This document shows positions 43,765 to 44,192 of a stretch of 64,000 nt of DNA, in pieces (position 1 is the first letter of the stretch; every line of letters starts with the position of its first letter). Location of the stretch: the sequence record OR844765. One strand, 5' to 3'. The position numbers were made by a program, and so were the translations under genes. The notes under the pieces are model-generated. The model was not told the DNA's origin. It saw only the letters and a program-made list of their open reading frames with translations, and did no database searches. The DNA is from Escherichia phage ECO111 5-P.

Positions 43765-43791
43765 TGCATTTTTTCCTTATGTGATATAGAT

Positions 43792-43799
43792 TATTTATA
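43792..43799 (-). promoter_or_regulatory. late promoter TATAAATA for gene 24
   Basis: Exact TATAAATA on minus strand 28 nt upstream of gp24 ATG. Confidence 0.55.
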
Positions 43800-43805
43800 A
43801 AGATT

Positions 43806-43835
43806 GTTTACAACGTATTTGGTATGTGATACTAT
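43806..43835 (+). promoter_or_regulatory. early promoter (GTTTAC, TACTAT)
   Basis: GTTTAC, 18-nt spacer, GTGATACTATAGAC block as in other early promoters; upstream of ORF 43866. Confidence 0.6.
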
Positions 43836-43865
43836 AGACTTATCAACTACAGAGGAGTAAACAAA

Positions 43866-44135
43866 ATGACTAAAGCACGTTTCTTACGAGATACTTTAAA
43901 AGTTCTGGAAGCTGAAGCAGTTAAGTTAGTAGAAAAATATGGTGCAAAAGTTAATGGTAATGCCTTCAACAAAGTATGGATGAAAGTTGATTCTGAAGCT
44001 CGAGCTAAAGGTTATTGGGCCACTGATAAACTTGCATCATTCAAAAACAAAGACGGTTCTCCGGCATATGTCCAAGAAGGTATGCCTAATTGGCAAAATA
44101 TTTTGAAAACTTACATCGAAATTGCACAGAAATAA
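43866..44135 (+). CDS. hypothetical protein (early-gene cassette between genes 24 and 23)
   Basis: 89-aa ORF with SD AGAGGAG, own early promoter and downstream hairpin; opposite strand to flanking late genes. Confidence 0.55.
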   Translation: MTKARFLRDTLKVLEAEAVKLVEKYGAKVNGNAFNKVWMKVDSEARAKGYWATDKLASFKNKDGSPAYVQEGMPNWQNILKTYIEIAQK

Positions 44136-44145
44136 AACCAAAAAT

Positions 44146-44163
44146 GGGAGACCGAAGTCTCCC
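44146..44163 (-). terminator. hairpin GGGAGACTTCGGTCTCCC + U-tract terminating gene 23 transcript
   Basis: Reverse complement of the 18-mer at 6183; on minus strand followed by ATTTTTGGTTTTATTT; 30 nt after gp23 stop. Confidence 0.7.
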
Positions 44164-44192
44164 ATAAGGTTATGTATTTTAACGTTAAAGCA

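Follow-up and report, generated by a model that had tools for sequence, protein, structure and literature searches.

The moron concept, reportedly going back to Juhala and Hendrix, denotes an autonomous promoter-gene-terminator unit inserted between the genes of another operon; morons were defined in temperate lambdoid phages, where they are expressed from the prophage. The T4-type phages carry promoter-early stem-loop (PeSL) cassettes (Arbiol et al. 2010, PMC2839356; Comeau et al. 2014, PMC4122927), whose promoters in phages T4 and PST follow the consensus TTTACW-N17-TAYWAT (PMC4122927), and in T4 itself the gene segD, for a free-standing homing endonuclease of the GIY-YIG type, sits between the head genes 23 and 24 (PMC2988022). 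Here we analyze a locus that invites comparison with all of these. It occupies positions 43765-44192 of a 64,000-nucleotide stretch of Escherichia phage ECO111 5-P (sequence record OR844765; this whole stretch is referred to below as the window), where a small open reading frame (ORF) for an 89-amino acid protein lies between genes 24 and 23 on the opposite strand to both. We consider it probable, if well short of certain, that this is a mobile early accessory-effector cassette, or 'moron', and that the 23/24 junction provides it with a conserved expression socket.

The cassette resembles the PeSLs in having an AT-rich stretch, a sigma-70-like promoter and a conserved leader that ends in a Shine-Dalgarno sequence and an ATG, followed by a small and apparently non-essential ORF. 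Like them, too, it is inserted, deleted or replaced when close relatives are compared, and the breakpoints fall in the regulatory motifs, as we describe below for the phages LF82-3, HZ_ZJUN4 and dhabil and for T4 segD. It differs in lacking the upstream stem-loop of the PeSLs. The interval 43765-43805 holds the AT-rich gene 24 leader and late promoter and contains no terminator-like site, and the sole stem-loop of the cassette lies downstream, at 44144-44165, and is the terminator of gene 23. A further difference is the location of the cassette inside the conserved structural core, where the PeSL authors call such elements rarer. Since the upstream stem-loop is missing, we rejected full PeSL membership.

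The likeness to a moron is that the cassette combines its own promoter, a single small gene and a terminal hairpin between two genes of the late operon, and that it is present or absent among otherwise collinear relatives; a siphovirus homologue, considered below, forms a textbook terminator-promoter-ORF-hairpin unit. In contrast to the moron as defined, the phage here is virulent, expression would come early in a lytic infection, and it is the neighboring gene 23 that lends the terminator. With the T4 segD locus the cassette shares the junction, the antisense orientation, a homologous promoter-like region, the position of the start codon and an analogous downstream hairpin, whereas the cargo is unrelated, the 89-aa protein having neither a GIY-YIG motif nor similarity to SegD.

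The ORF occupies 43866-44135 on the plus strand, from an ATG at 43866 to a stop codon at 44133-44135. Its product matches the phrog_6003 profile over its full length (E = 2.1e-45, residues 1-89 against profile positions 1-90 of 90), and a tblastn search finds the ORF in 240 phage records, 117 of them at 95% identity or more (Mosigvirus records) and 120 at less than 60%, mostly 30-38%. The ratio of non-synonymous to synonymous substitution rates (dN/dS) is 0.03-0.13 within a second, divergent allele (at dS 0.16-0.5) and about 0.15 between the window ORF and a 61%-identical relative, with an overall range of 0.03-0.16. The predicted isoelectric point (pI) lies between 9.5 and 9.7 in all lineages and is 9.6 for the window protein. 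AlphaFold2 models the window allele with a mean confidence score (pLDDT) of 88 as a helix at residues 3-25, a helix at 31-48, a beta-hairpin at 56-70 and a helix at 76-88, and returns the same helix-helix-beta-hairpin-helix topology for the second allele (pLDDT 90) despite an identity of 30-34%. Seven residues (M1, K3, F6, G31, N32, N35 and Q70) are invariant among 19 diverse family members. The low dN/dS, full-length family match, common fold and conserved pI together show that the 89-aa ORF is a genuine gene under purifying selection, conserved as coding among its relatives, and so bear out the reading frame proposed in a preliminary description of this DNA.

The ORF is not a new object: over 200 GenBank records already list its product as hypothetical, and it is catalogued as phrog_6003. 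This family has no assigned function, so membership confers none. Two homologues bear spurious automatic names: the one in phage EAWsc9 is called 'glycosyl hydrolase family 25', and a JGI entry is labelled 'NADPH-dependent curcumin reductase CurA'.

The predicted early promoter of the cassette is located on the plus strand at 43806-43835 and is of the T4 type that host sigma-70 RNA polymerase would recognize. It consists of GTTTAC (43806-43811), an 18-nt spacer and TACTAT (43830-43835), has a TG 5' of the -10 box and an AT-rich stretch upstream, and may alternatively be parsed as TTTACA-17-TACTAT; it agrees with the PeSL consensus (PMC4122927). A generic sigma-70 scan of the cassette region detected no enrichment (3 sites against 3.6 expected). 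As that scan does not rise above shuffled sequence in such an AT-rich region, we tested the phage-specific pattern GTTTAC-N16-19-TANNAT, which has 10 sites in the window where 1.13 would be expected (about 9-fold), a count reached in none of 100 shuffles. Every one of the ten lies on the plus strand. The promoter singled out in the preliminary description is thus present and belongs to an enriched class confined to that strand. It is kept in JS98, LF82-3, HZ_ZJUN4 and dhabil.

Between promoter and ORF lies a conserved leader (43836-43865, plus strand) with the predicted Shine-Dalgarno sequence AGAGGAG at 43851-43857, 8 nt before the ATG. The leader of the 43806 site, ...TATCAAC.ACAGAGGA...ATG, is common to other promoters of the class. 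Placed side by side, the leaders share the motif agacYTATCAAC.ACA.GAGGA...ATG at several sites besides 43806, and the cassette matches in this respect the early cassettes at 6232, 15527 and 28475. A near-identical leader module, ...(C)TATCAACAACA(T/C)GAGGA...ATG, is found at 6261-6292, 15557-15590, 28505-28537 and 43836-43868. Judged by its sequence, the shared module looks like a reusable promoter-plus-leader cassette of the PeSL kind.

Back to back with the early promoter is the T4-type late promoter of gene 24, a minus-strand element that matches TATAAATA exactly, occupies 43792-43799 and lies 28 nt 5' of the gene 24 ATG. This motif occurs at 18 sites in the window against 7.6 expected, and the gene 24 copy is unchanged in 7 of 7 aligned phages. 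The late promoter accordingly diverges from the cassette, and every element of the plus-strand unit that had been described as opposing the late genes 23 and 24 is found in place.

The downstream hairpin is best read in the direction of gene 23. The gene 23 intrinsic terminator (44133-44165, minus strand) comprises a 9-bp stem at 44144-44165 with a UUCG loop and a U-run at 44133-44143 that overlaps the stop codon of the small ORF; the stem-loop takes in GGGAGACCGAAGTCTCCC at 44146-44163. Only on the minus strand is the hairpin recognized by a terminator scan, and there the stem is followed by TTTTTGGTTTT (also given as UUUUUGGUUUU). The folding energy is -17.8 kcal/mol for the plus strand and -20.2 kcal/mol for the minus strand, with z-scores of -4.5 and -5.2 against shuffled sequences. 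Since the UUCG loop and U-run are found together on the minus strand only, we assign the hairpin primarily as the terminator of gene 23, shared with the convergent small ORF; it may also stop plus-strand transcripts. Consequently, the cassette was called 'self-contained' too strongly. Its own promoter, Shine-Dalgarno sequence, ORF and hairpin can all be located, but the hairpin is oriented as the gene 23 terminator. The hairpin is retained in JS98, HZ_ZJUN4, LF82-3 and dhabil, and an analogous one is present in the empty-site phage RB3 and downstream of T4 segD.

Comparison across T4-like genomes indicates that the 23/24 junction is plastic, as anticipated by its earlier designation as an insertion hotspot. 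In every Tevenvirinae carrier that we inspected (JS98 and ABTNLsp5, Dhakavirus; HZ_ZJUN4, Tequatrovirus; LF82-3, Mosigvirus; and three metagenomic T-even contigs) the small ORF is at this junction and antisense, and at least six occupancy states can be distinguished among the phages compared. The junction may hold the window allele of the ORF, a second allele about 32% identical to it, or that second allele followed 3 nt past its stop codon by a SegD homologue, as in LF82-3. Alternatively it holds segD alone, also antisense, as in T4 (record RB59, species Tequatrovirus T4), which agrees both with the published position of the gene (PMC2988022) and with the preliminary description. In dhabil the promoter and hairpin are retained and the ORF is cleanly gone, and in RB3 and most of the Tequatrovirus records listed there is a late promoter and gene 23 hairpin with neither early promoter nor ORF.

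The dhabil junction (Dhakavirus; locus 1770-1892) shows a precise loss of the ORF that leaves the early promoter abutting the gene 23 hairpin, and so provides a natural deletion control. In the RB69 reference genome (NC_004928; locus 11211-11633) a +1 and a -1 frameshift, accompanied by clustered mismatches, break the ORF, and the annotation divides it into the fragments ORF188c and ORF189c. The gene may be a true pseudogene there, or this old sequence may contain errors. The ORF is also split or truncated in mogra and 310Ecol104PP. Absence from phages of the RB3 type, deletion in dhabil, frameshifting in RB69 and breakage in mogra and 310Ecol104PP all mark the small gene as dispensable, and thus as a presumptive accessory gene.

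The T4 state is informative about the history of the site. The segD ATG aligns with the ATG of the small ORF (RB59 locus 1782-1880 against window 43765-43865), and a degenerate promoter, ATTTAC-17-TATTAT, is present in T4 at the position homologous to the 43806 promoter. Because segD starts at the ATG of the small ORF, it looks like a replacement of that ORF rather than the reverse. The suggestion that the site now holds a different cargo from that of T4 therefore has to be turned around, with the small ORF as the long-standing resident. Time-course omics of T4 place segD in the class 'early-RNA, middle-protein' and detect the SegD protein (PMC9697503, supplements). This early class is at odds with a 2010 review, which reported that no segD promoter had been found and that the segD transcript was possibly vanishingly low (PMC2988022). 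Our comparison suggests that T4 segD inherited an early promoter missed by that review, which fits the early RNA class (PMC9697503). By analogy, the RNA class of T4 segD supports an active early promoter at the 23/24 junction, and the 89-aa gene of ECO111 5-P would likewise be expressed early.

Segment-wise nucleotide identities over gene 24, the left spacer, the small ORF, the right spacer and gene 23 reveal mosaic junctions. LF82-3 is 95%, 96%, 57%, 96.5% and 97.6% identical to the window over these five segments in turn, and 71%, 75%, 92%, 63.5% and 81.5% identical to JS98. HZ_ZJUN4 compared with JS98 gives 70%, 97%, 96.6%, 94% and 81%. On these figures we regard LF82-3 as a window-like backbone with a JS98-like ORF and HZ_ZJUN4 as a Tequatrovirus that has received the whole JS98-like intergenic unit. 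The left breakpoint in LF82-3, from window-like to JS98-like sequence, falls directly 3' of GAGGAG, and the right breakpoint falls in or at the hairpin, with JS98-like sequence before the stem and window-like sequence after it. The leader and the hairpin are thus the left and right recombination boundaries. The mosaics show that the cassette has moved among three genera, and because their breakpoints fall in these regulatory flanks, the exchange is ascribed to recombination there, in keeping with the PeSL model. The SegD homologue of LF82-3 is 57% identical to T4 SegD, and since it stands in tandem with the small ORF, co-conversion linked to homing by a SegD-type endonuclease is a likely second route of exchange.

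The family as a whole is small. It makes up about 24 clusters in a set of 5.8 billion proteins, and when 1.84 billion representatives were searched exhaustively with HMMER, 10 matches came up, 3 of which are artefacts: two long matches, to a protein with Big-2-type repeats and to a tandem-repeat protein, are false positives inflated by repeats, and the third is the product of a chimeric contig. Outside the T-even phages, homologues are found in rV5-like phages (three metagenomic contigs and Acinetobacter phage ABPH49, of the Vequintavirinae), where they lie within long same-strand arrays of small unannotated genes. One further homologue, in a siphovirus contig, directly follows the tail-fibre genes and is arranged as a terminator, a TTGACG-17-TATATT promoter, the ORF and a hairpin. 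This spread to rV5-like phages and a siphovirus has the pattern of a mobile accessory gene.

The preliminary description had found no match that its author recognized, and extensive searches also return no relative of known function by sequence, profile or fold. Pfam gave DUF4859 alone for the 89-aa protein, at 17.9 bits and under the cut-off of that family, with no GIY-YIG domain, and no Pfam family recurs meaningfully across 19 family members. NCBIfam and PADLOC searches yielded no match, and the best hit among PDB sequence profiles had an E-value of at least 0.13. Foldseek found no match to the model in the PDB and recovered only members of its own family from BFVD. In particular, Pfam, NCBIfam, PADLOC, the PDB and Foldseek reveal no likeness in sequence or fold to characterized anti-defence or host-takeover proteins. 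A degenerate SegD remnant was rejected (BLASTP against T4-type SegD, E = 0.022 over 17 residues), and guilt by association failed, since the neighbors of the homologues have no annotated function. Nor is the ORF a conserved T4 gene of established function, as it belongs to the function-less phrog_6003 and T4 carries segD in its place. According to a 2026 preprint (bioRxiv 10.64898/2026.09.14.751387), Mosigvirus AV110 makes a toxic early peptide, Emp, whose target is the elongasome. An indirect term search suggests that neither the capsid genes nor a product of 89 aa is mentioned there, which makes a link between Emp and the ORF unlikely without proving that the two genes differ. Our literature search turned up no paper naming RB69ORF188c/189c or VR7ORF190c, and the 89-aa protein is absent from the supplements of an accessory-gene screen (10.1101/2023.04.06.535777).

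We envisage the following course of events for the cassette. Host sigma-70 RNA polymerase would fire the 43806-43835 promoter right after infection, producing a short transcript with a strong Shine-Dalgarno sequence and the 89-aa ORF that would be stopped, at least in part, by the hairpin shared with the convergent gene 23. The product, a small, basic and stably folded helix-helix-beta-hairpin-helix protein, would be dispensable for the basic lytic cycle and would most likely bind a host protein or a nucleic acid or nucleotide in the first minutes, in the service of host takeover or counter-defence. Recombination in its flanks would swap the unit from leader to hairpin among T-even genera, and a SegD-type homing endonuclease, which can sit directly after the ORF, would probably add to this through co-conversion.

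That the protein is an early, non-essential effector binding a host component is suggested by the early promoter class, small size, conserved fold, basic charge, polar residues, presence or absence among relatives, allele dimorphism and mobility of the gene, and it is from these features that we infer a partner and role. Host takeover or counter-defence appears the most likely role; for counter-defence specifically our confidence is low, and it should be taken as one tentative possibility. The 89-aa gene is in these respects an uncharacterized member of a familiar kind, an ordinary phage accessory cassette and a reasonable candidate for host takeover or counter-defence.

Several points weigh against this assignment. 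The proposed role rests on context, there being no relative of known function by sequence or fold, and the genes beside the homologues in other phages are all unannotated. The basic pI is unlike that of the acidic, DNA-mimic type of anti-restriction protein. The sequence after the stem on the plus strand, AAGGUUAUGUAUUUU, is no canonical U-tract, and early transcripts may for this reason run antisense into gene 23. Finally, the frequent loss of the gene shows that phages can do without it on laboratory hosts, and would fit a role that is weak or conditional.

A serious alternative, to which we give a small but appreciable probability, is that the protein acts against co-infecting relatives rather than host defences, as a factor in superinfection exclusion or in competition between phages. 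It could account for alleles only about 30% identical at one locus within backbones that are 95-98% identical, and for the linkage to a homing endonuclease, an enzyme with which phages compete among themselves. The siphovirus homologue lies just after the tail fibre module, a frequent location of exclusion genes. The small ORF, however, has no apparent membrane-spanning segment or signal peptide, and its modelled soluble helical/beta fold is unlike exclusion proteins of the T4 Imm/Sp type.

The ORF might instead be a passenger or helper of a SegD-type homing endonuclease, as a regulator or as carrier of the cleavage site, that persists by hitch-hiking. The ORF and segD homologue of LF82-3 do form one early operon, T4 segD occupies the same socket, and the combination of allele and endonuclease on a Mosigvirus backbone is as co-conversion predicts. 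We nevertheless regard this as unlikely. No endonuclease accompanies the ORF in most of the carriers seen (the window, the near-identical phage WFL6982, JS98, HZ_ZJUN4, ABTNLsp5 and three metagenomic contigs), none is near the rV5-like or siphovirus homologues, the 17-residue match to SegD is no similarity, and purifying selection argues that the ORF has a function of its own.

A cis-acting element, in which the promoter and an antisense transcript are what matters (silencing genes 23 and 24 early or shielding them from read-through) and the ORF is incidental, is quite improbable. It would suit dhabil, which retains promoter and hairpin without the ORF, and antisense transcription into gene 23 is plausible given that the hairpin is a poor plus-strand terminator. 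These arguments are difficult to reconcile with the strong purifying selection on the ORF, the fold and pI kept across 30%-identical alleles, and the occurrence of the ORF in the unrelated genomic contexts of rV5-like phages and a siphovirus. Moreover, T-even phages of the RB3 type lack the promoter altogether, and it is thus not needed for control of genes 23 and 24. A head-assembly or virion-associated accessory protein acting on capsid assembly, to which the location between genes 23 and 24, a basic pI resembling that of internal proteins and a faint, non-significant match to the phrog_8765 'internal virion protein' (E = 0.09) might point, is very improbable given an early-type promoter with no late TATAAATA on the strand of the ORF, an orientation antisense to the late operon, absence from T4 and most of the Tequatrovirus records listed, which share the capsid, and rV5-like homologues that lie among small non-structural genes.

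Returning to the early accessory effector, a more detailed version can be sketched, although we think it doubtful as a whole. In this version phrog_6003 would be a new early-effector family with an orphan fold, in which K3, F6, G31-N32, N35 and Q70 form a binding site, possibly a helix-N-cap site for an anion or nucleotide. The occurrence of roughly 30%-identical alleles in backbones of 95-98% identity would reflect diversifying or balancing selection by host defence or by competitor phages, and the spread across T-even phages, rV5-like phages and a siphovirus would have come about through recombination in regulatory motifs together with SegD homing.

Were counter-defence or host takeover proven, the accessory genes of T-even phages would gain a new family with an orphan fold. 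Functional tests would be unusually convenient, since the collinear phages offer natural isogenic-like controls: both alleles, the deletion, the replacement by segD and the site that never shows an insert. Whatever the function, the locus illustrates, in compact and well-resolved form, an 'expression socket' that is conserved in the T-even structural core and whose cargo is swapped across genera, with breakpoints in the leader and the terminator.

The source of the window is assigned from the cassette DNA. The 561 bases that span the cassette are 99.8% identical to Escherichia phage a20 and at least 96% identical in more than 100 phages of the genus Mosigvirus (RB69-like T-even phages), which identifies the window as coming from a Mosigvirus, an RB69-like T4-type coliphage. 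The flanking genes were annotated from WFL6982. To the left, on the minus strand, is the 426-aa ORF of gene 24, capsid vertex protein (42484-43764), and to the right, also on the minus strand, the 522-aa ORF of gene 23, major capsid protein (44193-45761). Beyond gp24 in WFL6982 is the RNA ligase 2 gene rnlB, found here at 41456-42454 on the plus strand.

Other genomes differ beside or within the junction. Genomes of the Dhakavirus type have two tandem gp24 paralogues, 24a and 24b, next to it (JS98 locus 835-3399 and three further loci), compared with one in the window and in T4. In the T4-like Acinetobacter phage Konradin-v2 (locus 1748-3172) a 474-aa antisense homing endonuclease lies at the 23/24 junction, which makes this site a hotspot well beyond the coliphages.

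Four of the ten early promoters in the window, all on the plus strand (14344-14373, 15527-15556, 16933-16962 and 28475-28504), contain a perfect inverted repeat within the spacer between the -35 and -10 boxes, for example TACCACAA-gga-TTGTGGTA (8 bp) and ACACAT-gg-ATGTGT (6 bp), which might represent an operator, an RNA or DNA hairpin or a recombination motif. Each of these repeats is equalled in at most 4% of shuffled spacers; the 43806 promoter has none.

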